Shown here piece after piece: positions 27,075-53,357 of a DNA stretch of 55,252 nucleotides. Each line of letters opens with the position of its first letter. Position 1 is the stretch's first letter. A model generated the notes under the pieces. That model saw nothing but the letters and a program-made list of their open reading frames with translations. It was not told where the DNA came from and did no database searches. The translations under genes and the position numbers were made by a program. Location: NCBI GenBank assembly GCA_964626415.1, contig CAZVFH010000003.1, positions 1 to 55,252 on the forward strand. Direction: 5' to 3'. This DNA comes from an uncultured Candidatus Saccharibacteria bacterium. GTDB lineage: Bacteria > Patescibacteriota > UBA1384 > XYA2-FULL-43-10 > CAINNR01.

Positions 27075-30000
27075 ATGAGGGGAATTATAAAATTTAGAAT
27101 CAAAAAGCCAAAATTGGCAGTTTTTGTGGTTGTATCTACAGCCGTAGTTTTGCTGTGGAGAAATATTTTTTCCTTTTTGAAGAGAAGATTTCGATTAGCT
27201 CTATTGTTAACAGAAAATAATAAGCAAGTAAGGGAAATAGTAAAAAGGATTAGACATTTATTTAGAAGATTCGCTCTAAAAGCGGCTGTTCTTTCGGCAC
27301 TAATAGGATTAATTTTTACTCTGACTATTCCACATATCAAGGCCGAATCATCGGCTTGGGATTTTGGCGTCTCTGGCGACTATACTTTTGACAGCAATCT
27401 GATCGAAGTTATATCAAATTCGGGGCGATTGAAAGATCAGCAATATGTGACCGATGCCAACACCGCCGGACTCTGGCATAACGATGAATCCTCTGGGCTT
27501 ACGGCAGACGATGCCTCGGCTAACGCTAATGACGCCACTCTTTGCGCTAACGGTTCGGTATTTTCAACGGGAAAGATCAACAACGCTCTCTCGCTTGACG
27601 GCAACGCTAGTTGCGCCAAAGTCAACGACTCGGCGTCTTTATCAATGTCAAGCGCTCTGACCCAAGAAGCGTTTGTCAAATTTAACAGCGCTTTTGACAA
27701 AACAAGCGGAAATCCTTTTACCGTCACTGACAAAGGGAATTACAAACTGTATTTTGACTCAACTGACGGCAAATTGAAATTTGAGCTTGATCCAAGCACG
27801 GCTAAAAGCTGGACAAAGCAGGGCGAAGGAGTCGGAAACAGCTGGCCGATTCAAAATCCGGGATCGGTTCGATCGCTTGTCGAGTACAGTTCGGCTCTTT
27901 ATGTTGGTTTGGAAGGAGCAGCCGGCGACGCCGAGATCTGGCGCTACAGCGGAAGCGGCACTAGTTGGACGAAAATCGGCGGCGACGGGCTTAACTCCAG
28001 TTGGGGCGATCAGATGTTTGAAAGCGTTACATCCTTGATCGTTAGGGGAACGAATATTCTCGCTGGTCTTGGAAGCACCACTAACGACGCCGAGGTTTGG
28101 AGCTGGAACGGCTCGGCCTGGACTAAAATCGGCGGCGATGGGCTCAACCAAAGCTGGAGTAGTAATGATCGGGTTTTTGCTTTTGCCAACATCGGTTCGA
28201 TCACTTATGCAGCGACCGGTTCAAATGGTGCCGGTGGCGCCAATGTTTATAGCTATGATGGTTCGATTTGGACATGGATCGGCGGCCAAGGGATTAATTC
28301 AAGTTGGGCTGCCACTACCTATGAACAGGCCTACAGCATTACCGCTTCGGCTACGACTTTGTATGTTGGGTTGGGCTTCAATACCGGAGAAGCCGAGGTT
28401 TGGAGCTGGAACGGTTCGTCTTGGACTAAAATTGCTGACGATGGTTTGGGCTTTTCCGCCGGCTACGAGATAGTCGCAAGTTTAGTGTATTCAGGAACTA
28501 CTCTTTATGCTGGGCTTAGCAACAACGCTGGTGATGCTGATGTTTATAGTTGGAATGGTACAACTTGGACACAAATTGGCGGCGACGCCCTTAATTCCAG
28601 CTGGACGGGAAGTTATGAGAGCGTCCAAGGACTAATTATGGTTAATTCGGTACTATACGCCGGTCTTGGAACCAACGCCGACGACGCCGAGGTTTGGAGC
28701 TGGAACGGCTCGGCCTGGACTAAAATCGGCGGCGACACCCTTAATTCCAGCTGGACTTACGGCAAGGAATCTGCTTGGCTCGGGTCGCTCGGCAACGATC
28801 TGATTGTCGGGACGGGAATCGAGTACTATGACTCCGAGGTCTGGCGCTACAGCGGAGGCGCTTGGAGCTGGATCGGTGGCAAGGACTATAATTCATGGGC
28901 GCCGTCTGTTTTAAGCTCGGTTTATTCACTGGCGATTAATGACGGCAAACTCTATGTTGGCTTTGGAGGAACAAATAAACAAGCAGTCGTTTGGCAGTAT
29001 GACGGCGCAAATTGGAGCCATGTCGGTGGCAATGTCAATTCCAGCTGGGATGAGTCAATAGAATATGTCTACTCACTGGCTTCGTACAATGGTAAGGTTT
29101 ATGCCGGACTGGGGAATGGCACCGGAGACGCCGATCTTTGGGAATTTAACGGCACAAATTCTTGGACCAAGGTCGGCGGCGACGCCGTCAATTCTAGCTG
29201 GGCGGCCTCAACTTTTGAAGATGTTCGCACTCTCCTCATTTATAAAGGCGAGATTTATGCCGGGCTGGGTTATAGCTCTAACGACGCCGAGGTTTGGAAA
29301 TATAATGGTTCAAGCTGGACCAAAGTTGGTGGCGATGGCGCTAATTCGAGCTGGAGCAACAATAGCGTCGAGGTAAATTCAATGACTTCCGACGGGCGTT
29401 ATATTTATGCCGGTGTTTCTGGGGATGGCACAAATAATGCCTCGGAAATCTGGCGTTGGGACAACTCAACTTGGACGCAGATCGGCGGCGATAGGATAAA
29501 CTCCAGCTGGGAACAGGGCAATGTGGCGCTGGTCAACTCATCGGCGACTTATGACGGCAACACCTATGTCGGTCTCGGTACATACGCCGGCATGGCAGAG
29601 GTTTGGAAATTTAATGGTTCGGCTTGGTCAATAGTCGGGGGCAACAATATAAACTCTTCTTGGGGGGTCAATACCTATGAAGGAGTTTACAGTTTGGCGG
29701 TCTACGGAACAAATCTCTATGCCGGTTTAGGTAGTGGCACTGATGACGCCGAGGTTTGGAGCTATAACGGTTCAACATGGACAAAAGTTGGTGGTGATGC
29801 CGTCAATTCCAGCTGGGCAGCATCAACTTATGAATATGTTTTTAGCATGGCGGTTTACGGCGCAAATCTTTACGCCGGATTAGGAGCTTCTACCAGCGAC
29901 GCCGAGGTCTGGAGCTGGAATGGCACGGCTTGGACAAAAGTTGGCGGGGATAGCGTCAATTCCAGTTGGGGAGCTGGTTATGAAATGGTTTACAGCTTAG

Positions 30001-33000
30001 CAGTTTTTGGCGCTAATTTATATGCCGGACTAGGGAATAGCACTGACGACGCCGAGGTCTGGAGCTTTAACGGCTCGGCTTGGACTAAAGTTGGTGGCGA
30101 CGGCGTTAATACGAGCTGGACAACCGGCTATGAAGCGGTTTATAGCCTGGCCGCCTCGGCTACTAATCTCTACGCCGGTCTTAGCAGCGACGCCGGCGAC
30201 GCCGAGGTCTGGAGCTTTAACGGCTCGGCTTGGACCAAAATCGGCGGCGACGGCTTAAATTCAAGCTGGGCCGATGCAACCTATGAAGAGGTTGATAGTT
30301 TAGCCGTTTCAGGATCAACTTTGTATGCTGGAATTGGACTCACTGCTGGTGACGGTGAGGTCTGGAGCTTTAACGGCTCGTCTTGGACTAAAATTGGCGG
30401 CGATAGCGTCAATTCGGGCTGGACAACCGGTTATGAATCCGCCAGAACACTGCTGGTTTCCGGCTCAACACTTTTTGCCGGACTGGGGAACACAATCCGT
30501 GACGCCGAGGTTTGGAGTTGGAACGGCTCGGCTTGGACCAAGGTCGGCGGGGATAATCTTAATTCAAGCTGGGGCGAGGCTCTTGAATATGTCTTTTCTT
30601 TGGCAATTTATCTTGGAGATCTCTACGCTGGATTCGGAAATAACGTCGGCGACGCCGAGGTTTGGAAATATAACGGCTCAAGCTGGAGCAAAATTGGCGG
30701 CGATGGTGTCAACTCTAGTTGGGGTGATCTGGAGTATGAGGCCGTTTACAGTTTAGTTGAATATAATGGTTTGCTCTACGCCGGATTGGGAGATTCCGCC
30801 GGCGATGGTGAGCTCTGGAGCTTTAACGGTACGAGCTGGACCCAAATTGGCGGGGATGGCATTAATTCAAGTTGGACAGGAACTTCCTATTACAGGGCTT
30901 ACTCGATGATTACTTATAATGGAAAACTTTATGCTGGTCTTGGTTCAACATCCGCTGGAACCGCCGCCGGAGAACTCTGGTCGTATGGCAATAACACGGT
31001 ACTTAGTTCAACTTCAACCAGCTGGTCTACCGGTTGGTATCATCTTGCCGCCACCTACGACGGCTCGACGGTTAAGCTTTATGTCAACGGGACTCTTGAC
31101 AATTCCGCATCAGCCACCTTAACCCTGTCTGATCTTTCTACCCCGCTTTATATCGGTACCGGTTTAGGGACGAATTCTACTTATTCCACAACCAATAACT
31201 TTATTGGTTTGGTAGACGAAGTGAGGGTATCGAACAGCGCAAGGACGACTTTTGTCACCAGTAAATACTCGACCTCCTCTCCAACTATTCGGCCGACTGC
31301 CACTCTGTCTTCAACCGGTGTTACACAGTGGAGCGGTTTTGCTTCAAATGAAACATTAAATGGTGGCACGATTAAATACCGTCTTTCAAACGACAACGCC
31401 GCCAGTTGGAAATATTGGAACGGCTCAAGCTGGGCAACCTCATCTTCTGTTTCAGAGTCAAACTTGACTGCCGATATTAACTCACAGATTACGACTTTTT
31501 CCGTAACGAGTAACGGTCTTCACTGGCAAGCCATTTTAATCAGCGATGGAGATCAGCTGGTCATTTTGAACAGCGTAACGATCTCTTTTACTATTGACAC
31601 TTCCGCTCCGGATTTACCCTCCACTTTGACAGCTAAAAATGAAACTGGTGGCTTAGTTGATTTAACCACTAATACTTGGTATAAATATCCGACCCCGGCT
31701 TTCTCATGGAATGTTCCCGATGATAATGCCGGACAAGGTGAACTTCCTTCGGGAATCGCCGGATATTATGTTTACTTCGGAACGGACGATACAGCCGACC
31801 CGTTGACCGCTGGAGCGTATCAAACCGGAACCTCATATTCTGCTTCAAATTTAATTACCGGTTCAACTTATTATCTCCTGATTAAAGTTAAGGACAACGC
31901 TTCAAATACAACAACAAATATCTGGTCGCCGTTTATTTACAAATATGATGGCACTGCTCCAACGGTTTCAGAGTTTATCAATGTTTCACCCGTTGGTTGT
32001 TCAATTTCCTCTACCTTCACTTTTACTTGGCTGGCAGGAGCGGACACCGGAGGATCTGGTCTCTCCGGCTATGAATATAAAGTCGGCTCAACAGGAACGG
32101 TCTTGGCAATTAACGATCTGACGGTTACTGTCGCGCCTTATCAGGAAGGAGATAATGTCTTTTACTTAAGAGCGAAAGATGTCGCCGGTAATACCTCTGG
32201 TTGGCAGACAAGCGTTTTCTGCTCAACAGGCGCGGCTCAAATAATTGACGGACCGACGGTTTCTTCCAATCCCTCGACAATTGTTGTAACTTGGATCTCG
32301 ACCAAGGAAACTACCTCCTTTGTCCAAGTTTACGAAGACAATACTTATATCTCTGAACAAGGGCACAATGAATACACCCTATCGCACTCCGTCAGAGTAG
32401 TCGGATTGCAGCCAGAGAGAAATTATCGCTATAAGTTGGTTTGGATTGATTCGACAAATAACATGGGGGAGAGTAATTGGTTCGAAACCAGTACTACCAA
32501 ATCACCCTCCTTCTCGAATGTGACAACCGAGCTTTTAAGTCCGCAGGATATCCTTGTCTCATGGGCAACAAGCAGATCGAGCCAATCAAAGATATTCTTT
32601 GGTGAAAATTCTCCGACTCAAGAAATTGCTATCGACGGTTATTCCACAACCTTCTCTAAAAAATTGACAAATCTAAAGGGCGGCACGACATATCTAATAA
32701 AATTAAAGGCAACAACTGAAGATAATTTTGAATTTCAATCAGATAACTACTCATTTTCTACTCCTCCTCTGCCGTTAATTTCCAGTGTAAGATTCGATGC
32801 GATTTCTGACCGAGCTGGAAGCGCGATGAGGATTACATGGACAACGAATATTGAGACAACTTCTTCCATTTATTTTGGACCTAAGGGAGAAAATAAAAAA
32901 GAAATTTCTTCAAGTGAGTTAAAAATTGAGCATGAAATGGAAATGGTTGACCTTGCTGATTCGACAATATACGAAGTTATTGTTAAGGGAACTGATAAAT

Positions 33001-33437
33001 TTGGGAATGTGACAACTTCCGACACTAATTCTTTTACCACCCCAATGGATACTCGCCCCCCGGTAATTTCAGGTATTATTATTGAAACTTCAAATGTCGG
33101 TCTCGACAAACAGGATAAAGCCCAGATCGTTGTAAGTTGGAAAACTGATGAACCGACTTCGAGTCAAATCGAATACGGAGAAGGTCTTTCTGAGGGAAAT
33201 TATACTCAAAAAACAGTTGAAGATAAAACAATGACTAATTCTCATCTAATAATTATCTCCGAATTAATTCCGGGTAAGCCATATCATTTTAGAGTCATTT
33301 CGTCTGATGGGGCCGGCAATGTAACCTTTTCAGAGGATCATGCTGTGATTCCTGGCGAAGTACCAAGCAGTGCTTTGCAGTTGATTTTAAATATCTTTCA
33401 GAAATTATTTGGTTGGATTGGACTAGGGAAAAACTAA
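27075..33437 (+). CDS. giant (2120 aa) N-terminally anchored surface protein: split LamG-like domain enclosing ~21 Kelch-like blades, then a conserved ~80-aa domain and ~6 FN3-like domains
   Basis: Two N-terminal hydrophobic segments. LamG-type signatures appear before the repeats (NALSLDGNASCAKV...FVKFNS) and after them (WYHLAATYDGSTVKLYVNG...FIGLVDEVRVSN). Repeat consensus is LYAGLG...DAEVWSWNGSAWTKIGGDGLNSSW. FN3-like segments carry W..S/T and Y.Y.V patterns. Confidence 0.85.
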   Translation: MRGIIKFRIKKPKLAVFVVVSTAVVLLWRNIFSFLKRRFRLALLLTENNKQVREIVKRIRHLFRRFALKAAVLSALIGLIFTLTIPHIKAESSAWDFGVSGDYTFDSNLIEVISNSGRLKDQQYVTDANTAGLWHNDESSGLTADDASANANDATLCANGSVFSTGKINNALSLDGNASCAKVNDSASLSMSSALTQEAFVKFNSAFDKTSGNPFTVTDKGNYKLYFDSTDGKLKFELDPSTAKSWTKQGEGVGNSWPIQNPGSVRSLVEYSSALYVGLEGAAGDAEIWRYSGSGTSWTKIGGDGLNSSWGDQMFESVTSLIVRGTNILAGLGSTTNDAEVWSWNGSAWTKIGGDGLNQSWSSNDRVFAFANIGSITYAATGSNGAGGANVYSYDGSIWTWIGGQGINSSWAATTYEQAYSITASATTLYVGLGFNTGEAEVWSWNGSSWTKIADDGLGFSAGYEIVASLVYSGTTLYAGLSNNAGDADVYSWNGTTWTQIGGDALNSSWTGSYESVQGLIMVNSVLYAGLGTNADDAEVWSWNGSAWTKIGGDTLNSSWTYGKESAWLGSLGNDLIVGTGIEYYDSEVWRYSGGAWSWIGGKDYNSWAPSVLSSVYSLAINDGKLYVGFGGTNKQAVVWQYDGANWSHVGGNVNSSWDESIEYVYSLASYNGKVYAGLGNGTGDADLWEFNGTNSWTKVGGDAVNSSWAASTFEDVRTLLIYKGEIYAGLGYSSNDAEVWKYNGSSWTKVGGDGANSSWSNNSVEVNSMTSDGRYIYAGVSGDGTNNASEIWRWDNSTWTQIGGDRINSSWEQGNVALVNSSATYDGNTYVGLGTYAGMAEVWKFNGSAWSIVGGNNINSSWGVNTYEGVYSLAVYGTNLYAGLGSGTDDAEVWSYNGSTWTKVGGDAVNSSWAASTYEYVFSMAVYGANLYAGLGASTSDAEVWSWNGTAWTKVGGDSVNSSWGAGYEMVYSLAVFGANLYAGLGNSTDDAEVWSFNGSAWTKVGGDGVNTSWTTGYEAVYSLAASATNLYAGLSSDAGDAEVWSFNGSAWTKIGGDGLNSSWADATYEEVDSLAVSGSTLYAGIGLTAGDGEVWSFNGSSWTKIGGDSVNSGWTTGYESARTLLVSGSTLFAGLGNTIRDAEVWSWNGSAWTKVGGDNLNSSWGEALEYVFSLAIYLGDLYAGFGNNVGDAEVWKYNGSSWSKIGGDGVNSSWGDLEYEAVYSLVEYNGLLYAGLGDSAGDGELWSFNGTSWTQIGGDGINSSWTGTSYYRAYSMITYNGKLYAGLGSTSAGTAAGELWSYGNNTVLSSTSTSWSTGWYHLAATYDGSTVKLYVNGTLDNSASATLTLSDLSTPLYIGTGLGTNSTYSTTNNFIGLVDEVRVSNSARTTFVTSKYSTSSPTIRPTATLSSTGVTQWSGFASNETLNGGTIKYRLSNDNAASWKYWNGSSWATSSSVSESNLTADINSQITTFSVTSNGLHWQAILISDGDQLVILNSVTISFTIDTSAPDLPSTLTAKNETGGLVDLTTNTWYKYPTPAFSWNVPDDNAGQGELPSGIAGYYVYFGTDDTADPLTAGAYQTGTSYSASNLITGSTYYLLIKVKDNASNTTTNIWSPFIYKYDGTAPTVSEFINVSPVGCSISSTFTFTWLAGADTGGSGLSGYEYKVGSTGTVLAINDLTVTVAPYQEGDNVFYLRAKDVAGNTSGWQTSVFCSTGAAQIIDGPTVSSNPSTIVVTWISTKETTSFVQVYEDNTYISEQGHNEYTLSHSVRVVGLQPERNYRYKLVWIDSTNNMGESNWFETSTTKSPSFSNVTTELLSPQDILVSWATSRSSQSKIFFGENSPTQEIAIDGYSTTFSKKLTNLKGGTTYLIKLKATTEDNFEFQSDNYSFSTPPLPLISSVRFDAISDRAGSAMRITWTTNIETTSSIYFGPKGENKKEISSSELKIEHEMEMVDLADSTIYEVIVKGTDKFGNVTTSDTNSFTTPMDTRPPVISGIIIETSNVGLDKQDKAQIVVSWKTDEPTSSQIEYGEGLSEGNYTQKTVEDKTMTNSHLIIISELIPGKPYHFRVISSDGAGNVTFSEDHAVIPGEVPSSALQLILNIFQKLFGWIGLGKN
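27830..30980 (+). repeat. tandem ~150-nt coding repeats (Kelch-like blades) inside the giant gene
   Basis: Near-identical strings such as GACGCCGAGGTTTGGAGCTGGAACGGCTCGGCCTGGACTAAAATCGGCGGCGA recur (for example near 28085 and 28685). About 21 units are present, and they are GGC-rich relative to the flanks. Confidence 0.85.
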
Positions 33438-33486
33438 CAACAATAATTTAATCCGTATTATTATATTATTTAGGCAGAATATGTGA

Positions 33487-34230
33487 ATGAAAATGGAACA
33501 AATGAGGGAAAACAAAGATGCTGAATTTGTTAAACCAGCACATGAAAGGATAATTAATGTCTCGGGTTTAAAAAAAGTATTTACAGTCGGAGATAATCTT
33601 GTTCATGGTTTAAGAGGCATTGATCTGGAGATCGACTCCACTGATTTTTTGGTCATTTTCGGTCCTTCCGGTTGCGGAAAATCAACCTTGCTAAACATCA
33701 TCTCCGGTAATGATACTCCGAGCGAAGGCAAGGTTGAAATTAGGGGAATGGATATTTTTAAACTAAATGAGGATGAAAGAGGCGTTTTCCGCTCTAAAAA
33801 GATGGGGTTAATCCATCAGTTGCCATACTGGATTAAGTCGCTATCTGTTTTGGAGAATGTGGCTTTGCCACTGATAATTGAAGGAGAAAAACCAAAATTT
33901 GCAAAGGAAAAAGCAATAAAAGTAATGGCTGAAATTAATATTACCAAGTTAGCAGTACAGCGGCCAACACAACTTTCTGGTGGGCAACAACAGAAAGTTG
34001 GTTTAGCCAGAGCATTGGTCTCTAATCCGTGGATACTGTTAGCCGATGAACCGACAGGAAATCTTGACAGCACATCCTCGGATGAAATGATGTCTTTGTT
34101 CGATATGCTAAACCGTAAGTATAAACGAACAATAATTATGGTCACTCACAACCAGGCATATTGGGAACTTGGTACCCGCTGTATTGAGATGTCTGACGGT
34201 TTAATCACAAAAGAAAATAAACATGGATAA
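33487..34230 (+). CDS. ABC transporter ATP-binding protein (MacB/LolD/FtsE-like)
   Basis: Walker A GPSGCGKST, signature LSGGQQQ and Walker B ILLADEPTGNLD. Confidence 0.9.
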   Translation: MKMEQMRENKDAEFVKPAHERIINVSGLKKVFTVGDNLVHGLRGIDLEIDSTDFLVIFGPSGCGKSTLLNIISGNDTPSEGKVEIRGMDIFKLNEDERGVFRSKKMGLIHQLPYWIKSLSVLENVALPLIIEGEKPKFAKEKAIKVMAEINITKLAVQRPTQLSGGQQQKVGLARALVSNPWILLADEPTGNLDSTSSDEMMSLFDMLNRKYKRTIIMVTHNQAYWELGTRCIEMSDGLITKENKHG

Positions 34231-35419
34231 AGGTTTTATTGTAGAATTTGCCTTTAAGAATTTAATTAATCACCGTTTGCGAACTATCTTAACGTTGGTT
34301 GGTGTTATAATTGGAATCTCTGCTGTTGTTTTTCTCTTGGCTTTTGCTTTTGGAGTTGAGAGATTAGTAACGCTAGAAGTAACTGGTGGCGACGCTTTTA
34401 AGTTAATTGATATCGGGACTGGAAATTCGCAAATAGTCAAGTTAAACAACACAGCAGTAAATGAAATAGGAGCTCTTAATAATGTGCGGTTGATAAAAAC
34501 CACCACCAATGTGGCAGCCAAGGTAAAAGAAGGCAACAATACAATGGATGTGGCTTTTTTTGCTTCTTCTCCGGAATATTTTGAATGGTCGGGCATCCGT
34601 CCAAAGTGGGGCAAAAACATTTCGGAGGGCAAAAACAATGAGATTATGATAAACAGTAATTGTATTTCTTTCTTAAAGACAACACATCCGGAAGATGTGA
34701 TTGGTAAAACTTTGACTCTTGATTTAATTTTACCTAAGGAGTTGTTGGAAAATGGGAACAATAAGGTAGTGGCGAATCAAAAATTTTCTATTGTTGGAGT
34801 AATTCAAAACAATGCCACTCCAAGCATCTACGGCTTAAATCAAGTGCTTGCCGATAATAATGTAGTAAATTATTCACAAGCAAAGGTTGAAATTAACAAT
34901 AATAATAAGGTTCTTGAGCTGCGCAAACAGATTGAAAGTATGGGATTTAAAACCCAATATGTTGGCGATACTATTTCTCAGATTCAGCAGATATTCAATA
35001 TCTTTAAGTTAATTTTAGGCAGTTTTGGCTTGATTGCCTTGATCGTTGCCTCAATTGGCATGTTTAATACTTTAACCATTTCCCTTCTGGAACGTATGAG
35101 AGAAGTGGCACTGCTTAAAATTCTCGGTGCTCGCCGACGTGATATCAGTCGACTTTTTCTAACTGAAGCGCTAATATTTGGAGCAATTGGCGGGGTTTTA
35201 GGGACAGGTATGGGGATTTTGATAGGAAAAATTACTAACTTCGTTCTTAATATTTACGCCACACGCGGGGGCGGTGATGCAGTTAGTGTTTTTTACTTTC
35301 CTATTTGGTTAATTGTAACCAGCGTCATTTTTTCTATTCTAATTGGTTTATTAACTGGAATTTATCCTTCTCGTAGGGCAGCCAGAATCGCCCCGCTAGA
35401 TATTATTAGATATGAGTAG
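34223..35419 (+). CDS. ABC transporter permease, FtsX/MacB type
   Basis: TM1, a ~230-aa extracytoplasmic domain, then three TM segments with the FtsX-domain pattern (LTISLLERMREVALLKILGARRRDI). The start overlaps the ATPase stop (ATGGATAA). Confidence 0.85.
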   Translation: MDKGFIVEFAFKNLINHRLRTILTLVGVIIGISAVVFLLAFAFGVERLVTLEVTGGDAFKLIDIGTGNSQIVKLNNTAVNEIGALNNVRLIKTTTNVAAKVKEGNNTMDVAFFASSPEYFEWSGIRPKWGKNISEGKNNEIMINSNCISFLKTTHPEDVIGKTLTLDLILPKELLENGNNKVVANQKFSIVGVIQNNATPSIYGLNQVLADNNVVNYSQAKVEINNNNKVLELRKQIESMGFKTQYVGDTISQIQQIFNIFKLILGSFGLIALIVASIGMFNTLTISLLERMREVALLKILGARRRDISRLFLTEALIFGAIGGVLGTGMGILIGKITNFVLNIYATRGGGDAVSVFYFPIWLIVTSVIFSILIGLLTGIYPSRRAARIAPLDIIRYE

Positions 35420-35520
35420 ACATACAAATTCTTAATTTGTAAATAATTTTTCCAGCGACACGACCCTCCAATGAAAATAAAAATTTGTGGTATAGTGTAA
35501 ATATATCAAGAAAGGGCATA

Positions 35521-36312: not shown

Positions 36313-36409
36313 TCATATCCATTCTATCCCTTGCAAAATCTAGAAATATTTGGAATAAATAAAATTTTTCTTCAATCCAACTAGCTCTGCTATTTTTTTA
36401 ATAAAATCG

Positions 36410-37083: not shown

Positions 37084-37128
37084 TCAACACAATTCAATTT
37101 TCTAGTTCCGTTTGATATAATAAAAACA

Positions 37129-39966
37129 ATGAAAGCAAAAAGCTGTTTTGGGGCGTCTTTGTTAACACTGTTTTTTCGGTGCTTATTTTTGGGTGTAATT
37201 ATCACACTTGTTGTTTTATTCGTACTAAAAGCTCAAAAAACTAAAGCCGCTAACTGCGGTGGAGCGGTTGTCTGTGCATGTGGGGATACAGTTACCTCAA
37301 GCTATACTTTAACCGGCAACCTGACTTGCACTGGCAATGGGCTGAGAGTCGGCGCCGCCGGTATTACTATTGATGGCGGGGGATTTACGATAACAGGAGA
37401 CGGGGGTGCTGATGACTATGGCATTTACAACCTCAGCGGCTACAGCGGAGTGACTATTCGCGATTTTGATAATATTACAAACTTCAACTATGGAATATAT
37501 ATAACTGGGGGAATAAATAATAATATACAAAATGTTACGGCCAATGCCAATAATTTCGTGGGAATTATTCTTAATTCGGGTTCAGGGCATACGGTAAATC
37601 AGAGCACAGCAAACAATAATAACTCGTATGGAATCCTTGTGAATTGCAATTCCAATTTTATTACAAATAATACCGCAAATTCGAATCTAGGAGATTTGGT
37701 AAATGGTAATCCAAATGCTGGAATATATTTAAATATAAATACTAATTCAAACACTTTAACTGGCAATACAACAGACAATAATTCGCAACATGGCATAGGG
37801 TTATTTCTTTCAAACAACAATACCTTAACGTCCAATTCCGCTTCAGGAAATCGCGTCGGCAATATTTCCAATATATCGCTATTGAGCACGGGTAATGCTA
37901 TCGATACCACCAATCTCGTTGAAGGAAAACCGGTATATTATCTGTCGAATATTTCAGACGTAATTTATGACGGCGTAAATGCTGGGATGTTCAACTGTTT
38001 TAGCTGCACCAATGTAACAATAAAAAACACAACGCTTGCAACGAATAATAATTATGCAATTGCCTTTAAAAACTCAACGGGTTCCGTCGTTCAAAATAAT
38101 ATAATCGCCAACAGTTATTGTGGCATATTTATGAGCGGCTCCGTAGCAACAATTTCAGGAAATTCCGTTAGCGGTTCGGACGTCGGACTGACTGTCTCAA
38201 ACGGAAGCGTGGTTTCTGGCAATACGATATTTTCAAATAAACTTGGACTCTCCGGTTCGGGATTAAGTGGCACAACCACTATAAGCAATAACCAGTTTTT
38301 AAAGAATGGAGTCGGCTATACCAACAGCGCCACGGCAGTTTTTCAAAATAATCATTTTTTTCACGACCTAAACATGGACAACTCATCATCTTCGAACAGG
38401 ATTAATATGTTGAGATACAGCGATACTGAAAGAACTTATAATCCAGGTGAAACAATTAATTTTTCGTTCTCGACACTTACCGCCAATGGCGTAGCCTGTG
38501 ACGCTGGAACTTGCAGTTATTCCGTTGCGATTAGCCCAACAAATAATTCTCTCTCAAGCAGTTTGGCTGGCGATACTGTCAGTGGCAGTTTTGTGCCTAA
38601 TAGGAGCGGTATTTTCTCTTTGTTGATTACTGTAACGGACGGAAACGGTAATGAAACAAAGAGAAATGTTGTATTTCTGATTGGTTCCACTTTCTCCTCA
38701 ACCACAAGATATTATTTCCGTTCTCAAAAGCCAACGCATAGCCAACCGAGGGGAAATGGGCTTGATACCAGCGTATTGAAACTTACCGCTCCCAGTTCGG
38801 ATGAGTTCAACTGGTGTTCTGGCTGGGTTCAATACTCCCCTGACGATATTCCCGAGTATCCGTTTTCAAGCATCTATAGCGTCGAATCACCGTTTTATTA
38901 TAAGCTCGCGCTTGATTCCTTTTTTGGAGTTCAAAGATATGTCGCCTATAATTCGACCTCTGATTCGTCCGTTTCGGTTTCATCCTCCCCAAACTACTTA
39001 TTAACAACAAAAACAATCAGCAATTTAAACTTTATGATGGATTATTTACAAAGCTGGTACAGCCTAAAATTATCACTGGGAGGTAACACCAGTTCTTTAC
39101 ATCCCCAGTTAAGATCAACCGCCTTGCTTCCGTCTTACACTGATATCACTTACTCCTACACCACTGCACCTACCATAAAAACATCCTCAAATAACGATAT
39201 TTTGATACTATCCGCTACAGCAACAGACGCAGGCAATACTGATCCAAACATTGTTTTGAATAATCCAACTTTATCTTCGGCCTCGACAACATTAACCTTA
39301 GATAGTATTACTCGGCCGTTCATTAATGGTACGACAGCAATAAATTCTAGCGGCAGCGCTACGGTAAGCGCTACTTTGGCAGCCGGGGCTACGACTACTT
39401 TGAATACGGCCAATATGGTTCTTGCTCCTTCTTCCGGCAGTGTTACGGTTGATATTGCAACATGGAACACTTCGGGAACTTACAGCAAGGAATGGACCGA
39501 AAATGGTTCGGCCGCTGGTATTACAACGGGGCATACAGTTGGAAATATGAATCCGAATACCAGTTACACTTTGTCTATTGATGGCATACTTGGCAACTAC
39601 TATGTTTCAAATGGATCGGGGGAGATCGCTTTCAACTACACTGGCGGGTACTCTGCCCATACTTTTGCCTTGGCGGAGGAAGTATTGCCGACATCAGATA
39701 TTGTGTCATCGTTAATCGGATCAACAAATGGCTCTGCATCGACTCCTTTAACTGCCAGCAATAATGACACACAAATTCCTGAGAAAACTGAAGAAAACGA
39801 TTCAGGAACGATTGCAACTACTCCAGCCGAAAATAAAACCATTGCCAAAAACATCGGTAAAAACTTAATGATCTATTCCAGAATAATTATCGGTCTCGGA
39901 GCTCTTTTTGTTGGGGGGAGATGGCTAGTTTTGTTTGCAAAAAGACGAAGAAGCAGAATGGCTTGA
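37129..39966 (+). CDS. surface protein with right-handed parallel beta-helix (PbH1/NosD-like) repeats and a C-terminal TM anchor
   Basis: Signal/TM segment. Repeated ~22-aa units (GIYITGGINNNIQNVTANANNFVGIIL, NSYGILVNCNSNFITNNTAN ...). C-terminal sequence NIGKNLMIYSRIIIGLGALFVGGRWLVLFAKRRRSRMA. Confidence 0.8.
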   Translation: MKAKSCFGASLLTLFFRCLFLGVIITLVVLFVLKAQKTKAANCGGAVVCACGDTVTSSYTLTGNLTCTGNGLRVGAAGITIDGGGFTITGDGGADDYGIYNLSGYSGVTIRDFDNITNFNYGIYITGGINNNIQNVTANANNFVGIILNSGSGHTVNQSTANNNNSYGILVNCNSNFITNNTANSNLGDLVNGNPNAGIYLNINTNSNTLTGNTTDNNSQHGIGLFLSNNNTLTSNSASGNRVGNISNISLLSTGNAIDTTNLVEGKPVYYLSNISDVIYDGVNAGMFNCFSCTNVTIKNTTLATNNNYAIAFKNSTGSVVQNNIIANSYCGIFMSGSVATISGNSVSGSDVGLTVSNGSVVSGNTIFSNKLGLSGSGLSGTTTISNNQFLKNGVGYTNSATAVFQNNHFFHDLNMDNSSSSNRINMLRYSDTERTYNPGETINFSFSTLTANGVACDAGTCSYSVAISPTNNSLSSSLAGDTVSGSFVPNRSGIFSLLITVTDGNGNETKRNVVFLIGSTFSSTTRYYFRSQKPTHSQPRGNGLDTSVLKLTAPSSDEFNWCSGWVQYSPDDIPEYPFSSIYSVESPFYYKLALDSFFGVQRYVAYNSTSDSSVSVSSSPNYLLTTKTISNLNFMMDYLQSWYSLKLSLGGNTSSLHPQLRSTALLPSYTDITYSYTTAPTIKTSSNNDILILSATATDAGNTDPNIVLNNPTLSSASTTLTLDSITRPFINGTTAINSSGSATVSATLAAGATTTLNTANMVLAPSSGSVTVDIATWNTSGTYSKEWTENGSAAGITTGHTVGNMNPNTSYTLSIDGILGNYYVSNGSGEIAFNYTGGYSAHTFALAEEVLPTSDIVSSLIGSTNGSASTPLTASNNDTQIPEKTEENDSGTIATTPAENKTIAKNIGKNLMIYSRIIIGLGALFVGGRWLVLFAKRRRSRMA

Positions 39967-40004
39967 TAATCTTTATTTTTCGATTTTACCAGTTTTTTAG
40001 TACA

Positions 40005-42050
40005 ATGAAATTGATGGGAAAAAGAATAGTAGTTATTTTTTGTTTAGTTTTTTTATCACTTTTTTTTTGTTTTGACAAAAAAACAACAGTGGCCGATAAT
40101 GGTACAACCCATTCTTGGCAATTCTCCTCTGCCTCTGATTTTACAATTTCTGACAGCTCAAAACTAAAATTTTCAAATAATTCTGTCAAAATAATACCGA
40201 CCGGTGCGGTATCGGACGGATATCAAGCACTCTATGACAGCGAATGGGGAGAAACAGCGTCAATTTGGGCCAATGCCGTTACTACTGATAGCAACGGTAA
40301 TATTTATTTTGCTGGTAATGTCAATCAGGATGCTGTAACTAATCCCTACGATTATTATGCATTCATTGAAAAAATGGACTCTGATTTCAATGTTCTTTGG
40401 AATAAAAAATATTTTCTTGCACCCGGATATAGTACTGCCCTTAAGGGCGGTTTCAATGATATCGAACTTTCCCAAGACGGATATTTATACGGTCTGACAG
40501 TTGGCACAACAGTTGTTGCCGGCGTTGCAACCTCAGCGACTGCGAGTTTAGTAAAAATCAATCCTTCTAACGGCGACATTGTCTGGCAAAAAGATCGGCC
40601 CAAGCCAGTGTGGGCTGGCAAGACCCCTTGGGCGGATACATGGGATGAGGGGAGCGGCCCGAGAATTGACAGTGAAGGAAACATTTATATTAGCTACAGT
40701 GTTGGTTGTGGCCGGAATAAAAATAACGGTCAGCAAATAGTTCCCGGTCCAATCACCATTGTCAAATATGATCCTGATGGCAACGAACTTTGGTCGGTGG
40801 TGGATGATTTAATCGAAGGTCGGACATTGTGCTTTACTTTTCCGACATATGAGGATTCGTGGGAGATGGTAGTTGACAGCGAAAATAGCGTTTATGTTGA
40901 TTCATCCTATTGGATCACGAGTGCGATCAACAATATGGGTTATGCCACCACTAAATATAACAAAGATGGCAATTTTCAGTGGCGGGACATCAAGGACTAC
41001 ACTGGTGACTGGGATTCACCCAGATCTCTTTCCATTGATAATGACGATTACATCTATGTTAATGGCAATCCCCCAATAAGCCAAGGGCTGTCGTGTAATT
41101 TAAGAAAACTGGGCAAAGATGGCAGTGTTTTAATTGAAGGACAGAACTTAAATCCCACCGGAACGGCAGCCGATTTTTCTTATTGTTGGGGTGCGGTAGT
41201 GGACAAATTTGACCGTTGGGTTTCGGTTGGAAACAATGTTGGCAAATTATCTATGGCATATTACAGAAAATCCGGGGAATCGACTATGGTTTTAGAATCG
41301 TTAATTAATTACGATTTGACAATGATGACCGGTACACAAGGATTACATAAGACAAGTATAGATAAATTCGGCAATGTTTATTCCGTAATGCCACGATTTA
41401 TTAACGGGAGTAGCCGCGAACAAACAGCAATTCTCAAATCCAAAAACACCTACCCCAACACTATGCCAGCTACCGGAACGCCGGTAACTTTAATCAATAA
41501 CACCGGTTTTGCTTATGAGACCCTGACGGCCTTTTCCATAGCCTACGGTGAAGCTGACCAAAATGACGCCGGCTTTCAGATTTCAAACAACGGAACCGAT
41601 TGGTATTGGTGGAATGGATCGGCTTGGGTTGAAACTACTGGTAATGATTATAACAACGCCTCAACCATCAACTCAAATATCTCCTCATTTTCAACCCAAG
41701 TCGGTAGCGGAACTTTTTACTTTAAGGCATTTATGCTGACCGATGGGACAAAACAGGTTGATTTAGCATCAGTAACATTAACTGCAGCATCAGCTACTAC
41801 TGCACCTGTAACTACTGTTTTATCAATCAAAAAAAAGACATCATATCTTTCGCCTCTAGCTATCATAGAGGAGTCAAAAATCGATACCGGAGCCATTGAA
41901 AACACTCCAATTAAAACAAAAACTTCCGAAAAATCTAATAACTTTGGTAAAAACCTACTGGTCTATTCTGGTGTAATTCTCGGTCTGGGGGCTCTTTTTG
42001 TTGGAGGGAGATGGCTATTTTTGCTCATCAAGAAGCGAAGAAGTAACTAA
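40005..42050 (+). CDS. surface protein with SBBP-like beta-propeller repeats, a shared ~75-aa domain and a C-terminal TM anchor
   Basis: Signal peptide after the ATG at 40005. Repeated D..GN.Y motifs (DSNGNIYFAGN, DSEGNIYISYS, DKFGNVYSV). NNGTDWYWWNGSAWVETTGNDYNNASTINSNISSF domain. Tail is NFGKNLLVYSGVILGLGALFVGGRWLFLLIKKRRSN. Confidence 0.8.
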   Translation: MKLMGKRIVVIFCLVFLSLFFCFDKKTTVADNGTTHSWQFSSASDFTISDSSKLKFSNNSVKIIPTGAVSDGYQALYDSEWGETASIWANAVTTDSNGNIYFAGNVNQDAVTNPYDYYAFIEKMDSDFNVLWNKKYFLAPGYSTALKGGFNDIELSQDGYLYGLTVGTTVVAGVATSATASLVKINPSNGDIVWQKDRPKPVWAGKTPWADTWDEGSGPRIDSEGNIYISYSVGCGRNKNNGQQIVPGPITIVKYDPDGNELWSVVDDLIEGRTLCFTFPTYEDSWEMVVDSENSVYVDSSYWITSAINNMGYATTKYNKDGNFQWRDIKDYTGDWDSPRSLSIDNDDYIYVNGNPPISQGLSCNLRKLGKDGSVLIEGQNLNPTGTAADFSYCWGAVVDKFDRWVSVGNNVGKLSMAYYRKSGESTMVLESLINYDLTMMTGTQGLHKTSIDKFGNVYSVMPRFINGSSREQTAILKSKNTYPNTMPATGTPVTLINNTGFAYETLTAFSIAYGEADQNDAGFQISNNGTDWYWWNGSAWVETTGNDYNNASTINSNISSFSTQVGSGTFYFKAFMLTDGTKQVDLASVTLTAASATTAPVTTVLSIKKKTSYLSPLAIIEESKIDTGAIENTPIKTKTSEKSNNFGKNLLVYSGVILGLGALFVGGRWLFLLIKKRRSN

Positions 42051-42073
42051 AAAAAATTAATAATCAAGACATT

Positions 42074-43486
42074 TTATAATTTCTCGACAAAAATTGGTGT
42101 GTCGGAAAGTTTAATACTGCCGGCGTCCATTTCTTGATTATCGCCGTAAATATCGCTGATTTTTACTTTTCCGGAGATTTCGGTCGGCAACTCCGCGTTT
42201 CCCCAAAGGATGTAAATCGCCTTGTTCCCGTTTATAAATTTATACTGGCCGATCTCTGAAGTCGTGCCACTGTTATCATCTTTTCCTTCGGTAAATTTTT
42301 CCTGAATGGTCTCTATCTTATCAAAAGAGTTAATTTTACTGACTAAATTCAAATAAACTTTATGAGTTGAATTGTTCGAGAGATCCATTTTTGTCTTTGG
42401 CTCCTTCTTATCTTTTTCACCTTCTTCCGGTGGCTTAAAGGCGTCGGGATCATCCCAAGTTGTCCAATTTTCAATGTAGAACAGTTTATCAGCGCCTTGG
42501 GCTAAGGCGAAAACAGATGATTTGGCCAGTATTTTGTCGAATTTTTCAATATCCTTCGGCTTATTCATTAGCTCCCCGAACTGAACCTCCGTCACCCAGA
42601 CCGGTTTGTTCTTGATCCCGAATTTCTCCAAATATTTCTTAAACTTCATAACATACATATCTTCTCTTTTCTCATCGGTATTGATGGTATGGATATTAGC
42701 GATGTCAAAGTAATCACCTCCATCGCCGGCAAATATTGGATTCCAAAAATCCTGAAAATTCTGTTGCATTCCCGCCATGCCGGCATGGGCAACCTTTGCC
42801 TCCGGATCAGCTTTTTTAATCGCTCCGTGCGATGCTTTTAATATCTCTAAATACTCCGCTGACGTTCCGACAAAGAATTTTAACTCTTCGCCGGCTCCGC
42901 CGATGCCACCGCCCTGCATCTCCGGTTCATTCATTATCTCCCAATATTTTATCGGGGTCTTGAGACCGGGAGCGTCATTTGCTCCGTCGCCATCATATCT
43001 TTCGACGACTTTCTCGACAAAGTCGGCATAGGATTTCATATCGCATGGCGCGCCGATTTTCAGATCTTCATTTCCGGTTTTTAAATGCCCGGTCGCTTTA
43101 TATTTATCTCCCTCACGACAAGTGTTTTGATCCCAATTGGCATACGGCCAGATCATGGCAATATGATAAACATCTTCCGAAAAATAGTCATTTTTGCCTT
43201 GAAGCCCCTTATCGATAGATGTCCAGTCATATTTTCCCTTTTTCCCCTCTATTTCATTCCAAATGATCGGGTATCCGCGCATCCAATAGGCGCCTTTCTC
43301 GCCAGCGACTTTCGAAAGATGGGTGGCTTCTTTTTCGGTATTTAATTTGAGCACTTGAGATTCCGTTCCAGGCCAAGTTATAGTTTTTTTGACAAGGTAA
43401 TTATTGTAAACAAAATACCCTCCAGCGGCAAAACCTAAAAGAATCAGTACCGCCGCAATGATGATTATTGCTTTTTTCTTTATCAT
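42074..43486 (-). CDS. membrane-anchored glycoside hydrolase, clan GH-A (TIM barrel), family uncertain
   Basis: N-terminal TM segment. YWEIMNEPE (acid/base NEP) and VWVTEVQFG (nucleophile Glu) lie about 130 aa apart. Confidence 0.6.
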   Translation of the reverse strand: MIKKKAIIIIAAVLILLGFAAGGYFVYNNYLVKKTITWPGTESQVLKLNTEKEATHLSKVAGEKGAYWMRGYPIIWNEIEGKKGKYDWTSIDKGLQGKNDYFSEDVYHIAMIWPYANWDQNTCREGDKYKATGHLKTGNEDLKIGAPCDMKSYADFVEKVVERYDGDGANDAPGLKTPIKYWEIMNEPEMQGGGIGGAGEELKFFVGTSAEYLEILKASHGAIKKADPEAKVAHAGMAGMQQNFQDFWNPIFAGDGGDYFDIANIHTINTDEKREDMYVMKFKKYLEKFGIKNKPVWVTEVQFGELMNKPKDIEKFDKILAKSSVFALAQGADKLFYIENWTTWDDPDAFKPPEEGEKDKKEPKTKMDLSNNSTHKVYLNLVSKINSFDKIETIQEKFTEGKDDNSGTTSEIGQYKFINGNKAIYILWGNAELPTEISGKVKISDIYGDNQEMDAGSIKLSDTPIFVEKL

Positions 43487-43557
43487 TTCCCTCCAATTTT
43501 ATTTTTTACGATTATATCTGCTGTTCCCTAATTTTTTCCCTTTGGAAATGATGGCTT

Positions 43558-45072
43558 CTATTTTGGCCTTCCTTCGCGAGGATATTTAAGAAGTTCGGGA
43601 AAAGCTTCGGCCAAGACAAAGAAATCGTCCTGATAAACAATCGGCGCTCCGGGCGGAATTACAACTTCAGGGAAAGATGGGCCGCCAGGGCCAAATGGTC
43701 CGAAACCCTTTTGCCCGGAATTTTGCCTTAAATAATAAATATGATCGTACTCTTTGAAAGTGTCTTCGGTTATCGCTGGTTTTTGAGTGACATCGGTCTC
43801 TAAAACCCAAGCTGACCACCATTCCAGCCCGTGCCGGGTGACAATTAGCGTCCTCTCCGGATCGTCAATTAGAGTTTTTATCTTTACAAGACGATCGTAG
43901 GCCTCAACGCTAATTGACGGGGTACTTCTGACTTTTATCATCATCGGCGCTGGACCGACCATTACTAGCAGCGCCAAAACGGCTAACAGAGTTCTCAGCC
44001 ACTTTCGATAAATATATTTTAAAAGAAAAATAAAAACAACGCTGGCGGGAATATAGGCCATTAAATAAAAACGGTTTGCCCACTCCGATCCCAGGAAGGG
44101 GGAGGTCAAGAAAAATGTGACGGCCAGAGAAGTCGAGAACAATATCTTTTCCTCGAGGGGGATCTCTCTTCTTTTGGTCCAGAGAAGAGCTAGGCCGATA
44201 ATTGCTATTGGGTTGTCTATGAAGGCATTGAAAAAATCCGGAGAAAAAATTGGAATTTTGCCCTTGAGCATTCCGGCGATTATCGGCTCCTTGAACAATT
44301 CAAGCGGTAAGAGTAGGACGCCGACCAGCCGCTCAAATCTGGCATGATCAAAGAAAAATAAAGAGAGAAAAATAGAAGCGATAGCGAGAAACATCAGAGC
44401 CGCCATTTTTAATAAATCAATTCTTTTTTCCCGCTTAAAAATAAAGGAAAAGAAAAGGAAACAAAGCGAAAAAGCCAGAGCAAACCCTAGGCAGCCCAGA
44501 TGAGTCAAGCCGGTCAGCAGAAAAAAGACGCCAACCAAAATATAATTGAGTGCTCGCCCCTCTTTTGCCGCTTTGTAAAGAAAGTAAATCAAAAAAGCCG
44601 ATAGCATCAAGCCAATTGAATTTTTCTGAAAATCGGCCATCATAATAAAGGCCGGAATTGAAAGAGTTGTCAGGGCCGAAATCAGAAGCGGAATCCATTT
44701 TTGACCTTCCCTGCCGATTATCGCTCTCGTCAGAAGGAAAAAGGGGATGGCAATTAAAGGATAAAGAGTGGCGTCGATAATTTTTGAGGAAAACATAATA
44801 CAGGATTTTAAATTACAGAGTCCAAGTAAGGCAAGAATTTTCGCCAAAAAGGCCTCGAGATAAAAAACCAGCGGCAAGTCGGAAAAAGCGAGGCGACCGT
44901 TTTCAAGTAGTGAACGGACTTGGACGGGATAATAAACCCCGTTGACGCCCGGCATCAGCGGGGTTTTGAAATCAATATAGAGTCGAAGCGCTACAGCGAG
45001 GAGAATTATCAATCCGAGAACTGTGTACGCCCAGCTTGTTTTCTCGCTTTGATTGTCTATTTGATAGTCCAT
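43558..45072 (-). CDS. polytopic (~11 TM) membrane protein, GT-C-like glycosyltransferase candidate
   Basis: Many TM helices with a first extracytoplasmic loop rich in acidic and aromatic residues, plus a ~110-aa C-terminal soluble domain. The architecture is like PMT/ArnT-type enzymes. No motif-level proof. Confidence 0.45.
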   Translation of the reverse strand: MDYQIDNQSEKTSWAYTVLGLIILLAVALRLYIDFKTPLMPGVNGVYYPVQVRSLLENGRLAFSDLPLVFYLEAFLAKILALLGLCNLKSCIMFSSKIIDATLYPLIAIPFFLLTRAIIGREGQKWIPLLISALTTLSIPAFIMMADFQKNSIGLMLSAFLIYFLYKAAKEGRALNYILVGVFFLLTGLTHLGCLGFALAFSLCFLFFSFIFKREKRIDLLKMAALMFLAIASIFLSLFFFDHARFERLVGVLLLPLELFKEPIIAGMLKGKIPIFSPDFFNAFIDNPIAIIGLALLWTKRREIPLEEKILFSTSLAVTFFLTSPFLGSEWANRFYLMAYIPASVVFIFLLKYIYRKWLRTLLAVLALLVMVGPAPMMIKVRSTPSISVEAYDRLVKIKTLIDDPERTLIVTRHGLEWWSAWVLETDVTQKPAITEDTFKEYDHIYYLRQNSGQKGFGPFGPGGPSFPEVVIPPGAPIVYQDDFFVLAEAFPELLKYPREGRPK

Positions 45073-53347: not shown

Positions 53348-53357
53348 TTTACTCCTT

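Follow-up and report, generated by a model that had tools for sequence, protein, structure and literature searches.

Conserved linkage of a giant FN3 surface protein gene with a MacB-type ABC pair in Patescibacteria

The plus strand of contig CAZVFH010000003.1 (positions 1 to 55,252; this whole analyzed stretch of DNA is called the window) carries the gene of a giant surface protein, followed by the genes of an ATP-binding cassette (ABC) ATPase and a MacB-type permease. Comparison with related loci supports these three genes as the conserved unit, an operon-like cassette that is linked in both directions across Patescibacteria. The cassette is defined by its domain anatomy, by the conservation of the tail of the surface protein, and by tight bidirectional linkage. 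The link is specific to the C-terminal part of the giant protein, which consists of an FN3 stalk and a terminal helix. The original prediction had joined the giant gene and the ABC pair in one functional unit, and forward and reverse synteny bore this out. It had also treated the surrounding 18 kb as one module, a view that was not sustained because the downstream genes are not co-conserved with the cassette. The cassette bears on the display of giant surface proteins by epibiotic ultra-small bacteria, through a mechanism that we infer.

The window is bacterial and of the Patescibacteria type, that is, from an ultra-small bacterium. Its GC content is about 0.39, and its genes for RecA, RecX, DnaG, sigma-70, FtsK, a split DNA polymerase I, and two 23S_rRNA_IVP proteins are marks of Patescibacteria (Candidate Phyla Radiation). 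The close relatives of the window proteins all come from Berkelbacteria, Saccharibacteria, Kerfeldbacteria, WWE3, or metagenome-assembled genomes (MAGs) of the "Patescibacteria group."

Linkage of the tail gene with the ABC pair

Loci were fetched by their permease genes, 52 from species-representative genomes and 80 from metagenomes, and were compared with the window proteins by tblastn and blastp. When permeases were collapsed at 90% identity, 42 non-redundant loci had at least 2.5 kb of DNA on both sides. Only three of the window proteins recurred at these loci, namely the ATPase, the permease, and, with its last ~420 residues (about 1696 to 2115), the giant protein. A gene encoding this C-terminal part (tail gene) was found at most four genes from the ABC pair in 32 of the 42 loci, and none lay further out in the flanks, which were up to 10 kb long. 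These 42 include the three weakest outgroup loci (L046, L048, and L052; <28% identity), which had no tail gene. Bacteroidota and other outgroup loci (L044-L048, L050-L052, and L135) gave no match of any kind to the giant protein. The order tail-ATPase-permease was seen in 27 cases; there was one gene in between in 10, in 7 the tail gene followed the permease, and in 2 its strand was the opposite one. Tail gene and ATPase gene were separated by a median gap of 22 bp.

The linkage was also examined in the reverse direction, starting from six tail homologues found by an independent protein search. Five of them lay directly upstream of ABC genes. Genes with ABC_tran and MacB_PCD/FtsX domains followed the tail gene directly in L054, L136/L137, L138, and L139, and in L053 the start of an ATPase gene followed it at the contig end. 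The sixth case, L055, has two tandem tail genes, and its contig ends inside the second, before any ABC gene. L053 is also a positional orthologue of the window, in the order FtsK (57% identical), a helix-turn-helix protein, RecA (75%), a 390-residue gene, the tail protein (about 700 residues only), and the ATPase (68%). Homologues of the variable N-terminal head were found in two loci (L141, and L142 of "Saccharibacteria bacterium CPR2"), where a full head-stalk-tail protein is followed by the ABC pair. In L025/L063, two tandem tail genes precede one ABC pair, which indicates that several tail proteins can be served by a single machine.

The adjacency could in principle have arisen by chance or through shared regulation, since both FN3 surface proteins and MacB-type pumps abound in these genomes; Patescibacteria are described as rich in genes for ABC transporters and for large surface proteins (PMC13059738 and PMC11809585). 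We regard the absence of any functional link as very improbable in view of the concentration of tail genes beside the ABC pair with none further out, the positive reverse test, the retained gene order with its short gap, and the limitation of the association to the tail-bearing subfamily of FN3 proteins. The synteny comparison proposed with the original prediction also covered the 7-transmembrane (7-TM) gene next to the permease gene. This gene was not conserved together with the giant gene and the ABC pair.

The cassette was also seen in MAGs labeled Gammaproteobacteria or Coxiellaceae (L007, L008, L031, and L042; labels as deposited), and L007, L031, and L042 have GC contents of 0.50 to 0.52. 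If the labels are correct, the cassette is also present in diderm bacteria. Because they are taken as deposited, we make no claim of a restriction of the cassette to Patescibacteria.

Domain anatomy of the surface protein and the ABC pair

All genes and open reading frames (ORFs) listed in the original prediction were found at the positions it gave, and so were the flanking genes ppsA, tRNA-Ser, and rubrerythrin. The features of the cassette and of the genes beside it are collected in Table 1.

Table 1. Features of the cassette and of the neighboring genes in the window
Feature	Position	Strand	Basis
Giant surface protein, 2120 aa	27075..33437	+	ORF, translation, Pfam, NCBIfam, AlphaFold2 models
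N-terminal hydrophobic signal or anchor, residues 62-90, ...AAVLSALIGLIFTLTIPHIKA/ES	27258..27344	+	Hydropathy
Variable head, tandem beta-propellers, GC-rich	27822..30944	+	Repeat spacing, Tandem Repeats Finder (TRF), AlphaFold2, Foldseek
Start of the part kept in relatives, two Ig-like domains (OmpL47-type / Big_13-like)	31596..32198	+	NCBIfam, weak Ig matches
Stalk of four FN3 (Pur_ac_phosph_N-type) domains, residues ~1709-2092	32199..33350	+	Pfam, AlphaFold2, Foldseek
C-terminal amphipathic helix, residues 2100-2116, ALQLILNIFQKLFGWIG	33372..33422	+	Tail alignment, AlphaFold2
ABC ATPase, MacB/LolD/FtsE type	33487..34230	+	Pfam ABC_tran 8.3e-31
Type VII (MacB-type) ABC permease	34223..35419	+	Pfam FtsX and MacB_PCD, hydropathy
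Stand-alone HisKA_7TM-type 7-TM protein, 263 aa	35521..36312	+	Pfam 31.7 bits vs gathering cut-off 28.6
Frameshifted pseudogene, paralogous to the C-terminal domain and anchor of the propeller protein	36410..37083	+	tblastn
Beta-helix (NosD-like) type I membrane protein, C-terminal TM anchor	37129..39966	+	Pfam Beta_helix/NosD, hydropathy
Propeller protein, 681 aa, one SBBP repeat, ~90-aa shared domain, C-terminal anchor	40005..42050	+	Pfam, comparisons
N-terminally anchored GH-A-like hydrolase, convergent with the plus-strand array	42074..43486	-	Pfam, hydropathy
Multi-TM putative GT-C glycosyltransferase	43558..45072	-	Weak PMT_2 and LA_3751/3752-family matches

The stalk was recognized by Pfam as four Pur_ac_phosph_N/fn3 stretches in the last 431 residues of the giant protein. 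It was modeled by AlphaFold2 with a pLDDT of 91.6 and a pTM of 0.68, with the C-terminal helix present, and Foldseek matched the model to generic FN3 tandems only. In all tail proteins, a helix of about 20 residues after the last FN3 domain forms the C-terminus. An alignment of 33 tails gave the consensus S-[LIV]-[LI]-Q-x-I-[VIL]-x-x-L-E-E-x-F-[GS]-W, or in short S-LLQ-I---LEE-F-W; among 54 tails, F was invariant and W was present in 47. The helix is amphipathic (hydrophobic moment 0.37 to 0.50) and often acidic, usually with E at positions -3 and -2, and is too short and too polar for a membrane span. In the C-terminus of the giant protein, ...ALQLILNIFQKLFGWIGLGKN, the LPXTG, PEP, and GlyGly motifs are absent, as is a TM helix with a basic cluster, and no NCBIfam model matched the tail protein.

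Other FN3 proteins lack this ending. FN3-repeat proteins from Nitrospirota matched the FN3 domains equally well, but they have no tail and carry a different C-terminal anchor. In three of them (P0044, P0048, and P0050), the C-terminus reads GGCGMI-P-NG-P-GP--AADL followed by a TM helix and basic residues, which appears from its sequence to be a different sorting-type signal, apparently unnamed. The window itself encodes a 532-residue FN3 surface protein (51788-53386, minus strand) with an N-terminal anchor, a C-terminal TM helix, and no tail motif, and the tail family thus excludes some FN3 proteins of the same genome.

The lengths of 39 complete, unique tail proteins were bimodal, at 440 to 730 and 1227 to 3269 residues, and an N-terminal hydrophobic segment was present in 32 of them. 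The minimal form, of about 440 to 490 residues, consists of a signal peptide, four FN3 domains, and the tail only. Because stalk and helix are constant over this range of lengths, the giant head is a variable add-on.

In the window, the giant protein runs from a signal-anchor through a LamG-like domain, about 20 propeller blades, a second LamG domain, a domain of about 90 residues that is shared with other proteins of the block, and two Ig-like domains to the four FN3 domains and the terminal helix. Hydropathy gave two N-terminal hydrophobic segments, at residues 9-35 and 62-90. Relatives align only from about residue 49 to 61 onward, and the true start may be located downstream of the segment at residues 9-35. 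Pfam found fn3 and a weak Laminin_G_2 match, and the NCBIfam model barrel_OmpL47 matched residues 1653-1715. The proteins of L053, L054, and L055 align with the giant protein from residue 1508.

The head, at residues ~250-1290, is made of about 20 repeats of ~50 residues, and TRF detected a 150-bp tandem DNA array at 29745-30422 (4.5 copies, 72% matches). The original prediction had taken the protein for a Kelch/LamG/FN3 protein. No Kelch model matched even at E<=1, and Kelch Pfam families occur only in remote homologues. A propeller fold is predicted by AlphaFold2, which modeled the repeats as four-stranded blades (pLDDT 81.5), and by Foldseek, which matched this model to tandem beta-propellers with no more specific match. 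A sequence search of the giant protein against PDB chains gave no match. Homologues of the head are known from Saccharibacteria, WWE3, and other groups.

Several further observations concern the giant gene. The propeller-repeat region (27822-30944) has a GC content of 0.47 to 0.51, versus ~0.39 in the remaining window, and another assembly of the same population breaks within the gene (P0131, 604 residues on a 6.4-kb contig). In L140 (7235-10283), a 272-residue giant-like N-terminus is followed by a 760-residue ORF in which ~640 residues of propeller repeats are in frame with TM2 to TM4 of an FtsX permease; the junction lies between LYAGLG and MFNTMSVSLLERTRE. This "Rosetta stone" fusion (P0172/L140) was rejected as independent evidence because the separate giant-like N-terminus lies before it and the two parts meet at a shared GLG/IGMFN stretch. 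Its probable origin is an internal deletion within a giant-ATPase-permease cassette, or else an assembly collapse.

The ATPase gene and the permease gene overlap by 8 bp. The translated ATPase has the Walker A, signature, Walker B, and H-loop motifs intact (GPSGCGKST, LSGGQQQ, ILLADEP, and VTHN). The permease has four hydrophobic segments (about 18-54, 256-290, 308-335, and 351-383), an FtsX domain at residues 267-391 (Pfam 1.5e-21), and a MacB_PCD domain at residues 21-215 (1.5e-12), the latter corresponding to an extracytoplasmic domain of about 200 residues between TM1 and TM2. Its nearest solved relatives are MacB (5LIL, 2e-25, aligned over residues 12-395), Spr0695 (5XU1), YtrF (9O9X), and LolC. 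The pair scored below the curated NCBIfam cut-offs for FtsX (34 to 35 bits versus 225 to 255), FtsE (173.5 versus 264.85), lolCE (57.7 versus 362), and LolD, the best NCBIfam match of the ATPase (200 versus 308); the ATPase was also under the MacB equivalog cut-off. By sequence, the pair is assigned to the MacB/FtsX superfamily, of which it has all defining features, and falls below the curated FtsEX, LolCDE, and MacB families. No HlyD-type or biotin-lipoyl-like adaptor was found among the proteins of the block or the cassette neighbors scanned, and no TolC-family duct was seen in the window.

Neighboring genes and cassette variants

The cassette has companions at many loci. A single-pass TPR protein of about 216 residues accompanies it in 45 loci, usually right after the permease gene (e.g., L035:2672-3388 and L112:11276-11980); tblastn and a profile search found no such protein in the window. 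Envelope genes (Wzy_C, MurJ, L,D-transpeptidases, and penicillin-binding proteins) are frequent around the cassette, with no fixed partner. A gene of about 520 residues between tail gene and ATPase in some loci was rejected as a component; it encodes phosphoglycerate mutase and is a housekeeping insertion. In the subfamily with minimal tails of ~490 residues, the ATPase has a C-terminal extension of about 180 to 250 residues with no Pfam match (L136:9478-10917, L138:9470-10918, and L139:1714-2979). Two-component genes adjoin some cassettes (5' of the ATPase in L039, L112, L123, and L124; L142:18157-21744). One set consists of a response regulator and an sCache/HAMP histidine kinase, the other of a PAS kinase, two receivers, and a stand-alone MASE3 membrane protein; they may parallel the stand-alone HisKA_7TM protein of the window.

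Translated from the ATG at 35521, that protein matches HisKA_7TM over profile positions 5-212 of 224. As originally predicted, it has no output domain; no further domain was found in its 263 residues. Its relatives number 21 among 1.84 billion representatives. The five closest are stand-alone proteins of 252 to 263 residues, and the remote ones have 530 to 830 residues with the 7-TM region at the N-terminus. The small paralogue that had been described as decayed is indeed a pseudogene: by tblastn, its parts are spread over three reading frames, with 70% identity in frame 2, an anchor in frame 1, and a signal-anchor ORF in frame 3. The domain of ~90 residues is common to the propeller protein, this pseudogene, and residues 1435-1501 of the giant protein. 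The beta-helix and propeller proteins had been said to share both a domain and a C-terminal anchor. They share the anchor region (54 residues, 61% identity), and no shared globular domain was found between them. The anchor, GKNL-x-YS-x-I-x-GLGALFVGGRWL-x-L-x-K-RRS, lies at 39730-39966 and 41810-42050 in the two intact genes, which have no LPXTG-type motif in it, and at 36950-37000 in the pseudogene; it may be a lineage-specific anchoring signal.

The two minus-strand genes encode a putative hydrolase and a putative glycosyltransferase. The former matched Glyco_hydro_42 partially (27.8 bits, cut-off 21; 135 of 376 profile positions) and Glyco_hydro_cc below the cut-off. The latter has about 10 to 12 hydrophobic segments and matched PMT_2 (17.6 bits) and the NCBIfam LA_3751/3752 putative glycosyltransferase family (36.5 bits), below the respective cut-offs of 26.1 and 200.

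The proposal that the nine genes at 27075-45072 form one dedicated host-interaction apparatus, assembled and operated together, draws on several features. All products are membrane or extracytoplasmic proteins, the seven genes on the plus strand follow one another at short distances, and the ~90-residue domain joins the giant protein, the propeller protein, and the pseudogene. Other loci offer partial parallels. In L042 (271-8612), genes for three Beta_helix/NosD proteins, of which two also have FG-GAP repeats, lie directly 5' of the cassette, and this is the only other locus that resembles the beta-helix and propeller neighbors of the window. In L141, PMT_2-type GT-C genes and other glycosylation genes surround the cassette, and PMT_2 was found at no other related locus.

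We nevertheless consider a single apparatus of nine genes improbable. BLAST found no relatives of the 7-TM, beta-helix, propeller, hydrolase, or GT-C proteins near about 140 related loci, and jackhmmer searches with these proteins against all locus proteins gave no match, even unfiltered. Pfam scans covered 24 multi-TM neighbors and another 40 that were secreted or large; Beta_helix was found in L042 only, and HisKA_7TM and PMT_2 were not found. Housekeeping genes (an enoyl reductase and aminoacyl-tRNA synthetases) follow the ABC pair in L098, the closest relative with downstream DNA (permease 49% identical), and the hydrolase and GT-C genes of the window are on the opposite strand. By sequence comparison, we class the downstream 7-TM, beta-helix, propeller, hydrolase, and GT-C genes as lineage-specific envelope genes beside the cassette.

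The region at 26.5-46 kb was scanned for promoters and terminators, and no intergenic signals stood out by which transcription units could be defined. Elsewhere in the window, the split DNA polymerase I occupies two ORFs, 107-1183 and 1443-2795 (5'-3' exonuclease and family A polymerase domain). The two genes for 23S_rRNA_IVP-type four-helix bundles are at 23422-23988 (plus strand) and 45150-45620 (minus strand), the second between the GT-C gene and tRNA-Ser.

Possible mechanism and relation to known systems

Proteins of the MacB superfamily act on extracytoplasmic partners or substrates, and none of these is conducted through the membrane (reviewed in PMC5985334; for FtsX-EnvC, PMC7668044). 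Type VII ABC systems have no transmembrane channel, and ATP hydrolysis is converted into movement of extracytoplasmic domains (PMC5985334, PMC7668044, and PMC6355983). In the cassette, the partner is exported, to judge by its N-terminal signal, the terminal helix is its only universal element other than FN3, several tails can belong to one ABC pair, and heads are exchangeable; together these features suggest that the ABC pair acts on the tail. We propose that the pair is a type VII ABC mechanotransducer on which the tail helix is stably docked, giving both anchorage and mechanotransmission as in FtsEX-EnvC, and we judge the chances of this reading to be about even. The surface protein would be exported by Sec, and its signal peptide would probably be cleaved. 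The terminal helix would then dock on the extracytoplasmic domain or the stalk helices of the permease dimer, and the ABC complex would thereby become the membrane anchor of the surface protein. ATP binding and hydrolysis in the cytoplasm would be passed mechanically to the stalk, as in FtsEX-EnvC/PcsB. The FN3 rod, rigid and of about 15 nm, would bear the variable N-terminal head across the wall and the S-layer zone, and the head predicted in this genome, with its propeller blades and LamG domains, would form an adhesin-like array. Because the variable N-terminal region is adhesin-like, a role of the cassette in host interaction is plausible.

Several points weigh against stable docking. We infer the physical contact between tail and permease, and likewise which end of the protein is proximal to the membrane and whether ATP hydrolysis holds, moves, or releases it. 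If the N-terminal hydrophobic segment is an anchor that stays uncleaved, as it could be, the topology would be the reverse of the one proposed. The tail helix was modeled at moderate confidence (pLDDT ~64 to 84), and 10 of the 42 informative loci have no adjacent tail gene. Retrieval of the loci relied on exact matches to 8-residue words of a single permease, so that one ABC subfamily is over-represented in the sample, and the ORFs of the loci were called crudely and mechanically. The composition of the cassette is not fixed, since the frequent TPR protein is missing in the window.

The main rival to stable docking is that the tail is a transient substrate, with Lol-like extraction or release of a helix at the membrane surface. 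Stalk and helix would then be a C-terminal sorting signal, and the helix would lie in the outer leaflet until a MacB-type ABC complex extracted it, as LolCDE extracts lipoproteins. The protein would be released, handed to the wall or the S-layer, or pushed outward, as MacB does with periplasmic enterotoxin. One conserved C-terminal module on unrelated passengers of 440 to 3269 residues resembles a sorting domain, one ABC pair can be common to two tail proteins (L025/L063), and LolC and MacB are among the nearest solved relatives of the permease. The amphipathic character and hydrophobic moment of the helix fit as well, and C-terminal amphipathic helices are known to anchor periplasmic enzymes such as PBP5. 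However, lipid-binding helices less typically have acidic residues such as those at -3 and -2, a sorting signal of ~420 residues would be of unusual size, and the minimal tail proteins would be little beyond the signal itself, that is, nearly without cargo. On balance, we consider transient extraction possible but doubtful.

A further explanation is that the FN3-tail protein is a structural subunit of an efflux or resistance pump for small molecules or peptides, analogous to the membrane-fusion adaptors MacA and YknX, that forms a conduit through the wall and carries heads as secondary fusions with no part in transport. The minimal form, which always lies beside the pump genes, could be such a subunit, particularly as no cassette examined has an HlyD-type adaptor, and the two-component systems next to some cassettes recall Bce-type resistance modules. 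It would be hard to explain why a pump adaptor was fused, repeatedly and independently, to adhesin-like heads as long as 3000 residues, drug- or peptide-related genes are not conserved near the cassettes, and we know of no FN3 rods that serve as conduits. We therefore regard an adaptor role as unlikely.

With stable docking as the preferred reading, a broader version can be put forward tentatively: many Patescibacteria may share a surface machine in which the ABC motor grips the stalk helix and uses ATP to extend, tension, switch, or shed the adhesin head. If this were true, the machine would serve epibiotic life as an attachment organelle actuated by ATP. It would also be the first mechanotransducer of the MacB/FtsX type in which adhesins take the place of wall hydrolases, lipoproteins, or efflux. 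A large share of bacterial diversity belongs to the Patescibacteria, whose cultivated members live attached to host cells. To our knowledge, the molecular basis of this attachment, type IV pili aside, is largely unknown. The cassette is a testable candidate for the anchoring, actuation, or release of giant surface proteins in a single-membrane cell, and a direct test is possible because Saccharibacteria carry it and are genetically tractable. In addition, the 20-residue tail motif provides a sequence handle for collecting such surface proteins in metagenomes. No description of the linkage or the tail motif came up in the literature and the curated family libraries, whose coverage is incomplete, and such an absence of evidence does not prove novelty. 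The linkage is strong, widespread, and apparently unnamed.

Among known systems, giant FN3/LamG/DUF2341 proteins were proposed as host-adhesion factors in Patescibacterium danicum and Absconditicoccaceae (PMC11809585 and PMC13059738). The parts of these papers that were consulted define neither a link to a MacB-type ABC pair nor an FN3-plus-helix tail. In Southlakia, a MacB-type pair, SEML1_0053/0054, fell in the growth-defect class of a transposon sequencing study (PMC10633639). It was rejected as an instance of this cassette, having no FN3 neighbor and no established orthology.

Giant adhesins of type I secretion systems (LapA-LapBCE and SiiE-SiiCDF) also combine a giant, repetitive, adhesin-like protein and a conserved C-terminal element with an adjoining ABC system. 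However, these systems use six-helix ABC exporters with a membrane-fusion protein and TolC, and their substrates have no N-terminal signal peptide, whereas the cassette has a type VII ABC pair with the FtsX fold and a giant protein with an N-terminal signal or anchor. The C-terminal domain of type IX secretion, LPXTG/sortase, and PEP-CTERM/exosortase systems likewise place a conserved C-terminal module on diverse passengers, with the machinery encoded nearby. The machinery of the cassette differs in being an ABC pair, and no sortase, exosortase, or Por genes were seen.

MacAB-TolC, Spr0693-0695, and YknXYZ share with the cassette a Porter/Sabre-type extracytoplasmic domain and an operon with an extracytoplasmic partner. 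Unlike these pumps, the cassette has no HlyD-family fusion protein or outer-membrane duct among the genes scanned, its ATPase and permease are separate polypeptides, and its partner is an unrelated FN3 protein. LolCDE resembles the cassette in its MacB-superfamily permease and LolD-like ATPase, in its target, which is the membrane-associated part of an already exported protein, and in serving many substrates with a common terminal signal by one machine. Lol systems belong to diderms and use N-terminal lipid anchors and the carriers LolA and LolB, whereas the conserved element of the cassette is a proteinaceous C-terminal helix and its scores are far under the LolC/E cut-offs. Patescibacteria-type organisms are, unlike Lol hosts, generally held to be monoderm.

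The FtsEX systems with EnvC, PcsB, CwlO, or RipC likewise consist of an ABC ATPase and a four-TM permease of the FtsX fold with an extracytoplasmic domain. They act on an extracytoplasmic partner bound via helical elements, with no solute transport (PMC7668044 and PMC6355983), and this partner is often encoded nearby. The cassette permease differs in its larger, MacB-type periplasmic core domain, with FtsX scores of about 35 bits against cut-offs of 225 to 255. Its partner, an FN3 rod with one short terminal helix, can bear giant adhesin-like heads, and Pfam and the AlphaFold2 stalk model gave no coiled coil and no peptidoglycan hydrolase, LytM, CHAP, or NlpC/P60 domain in the giant protein. 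If the proposed mechanism is true, type VII ABC mechanotransducers gain a new kind of partner. Judged from these comparisons, the cassette is probably best filed among the type VII ABC mechanotransducers, as one whose partner is of a new class.

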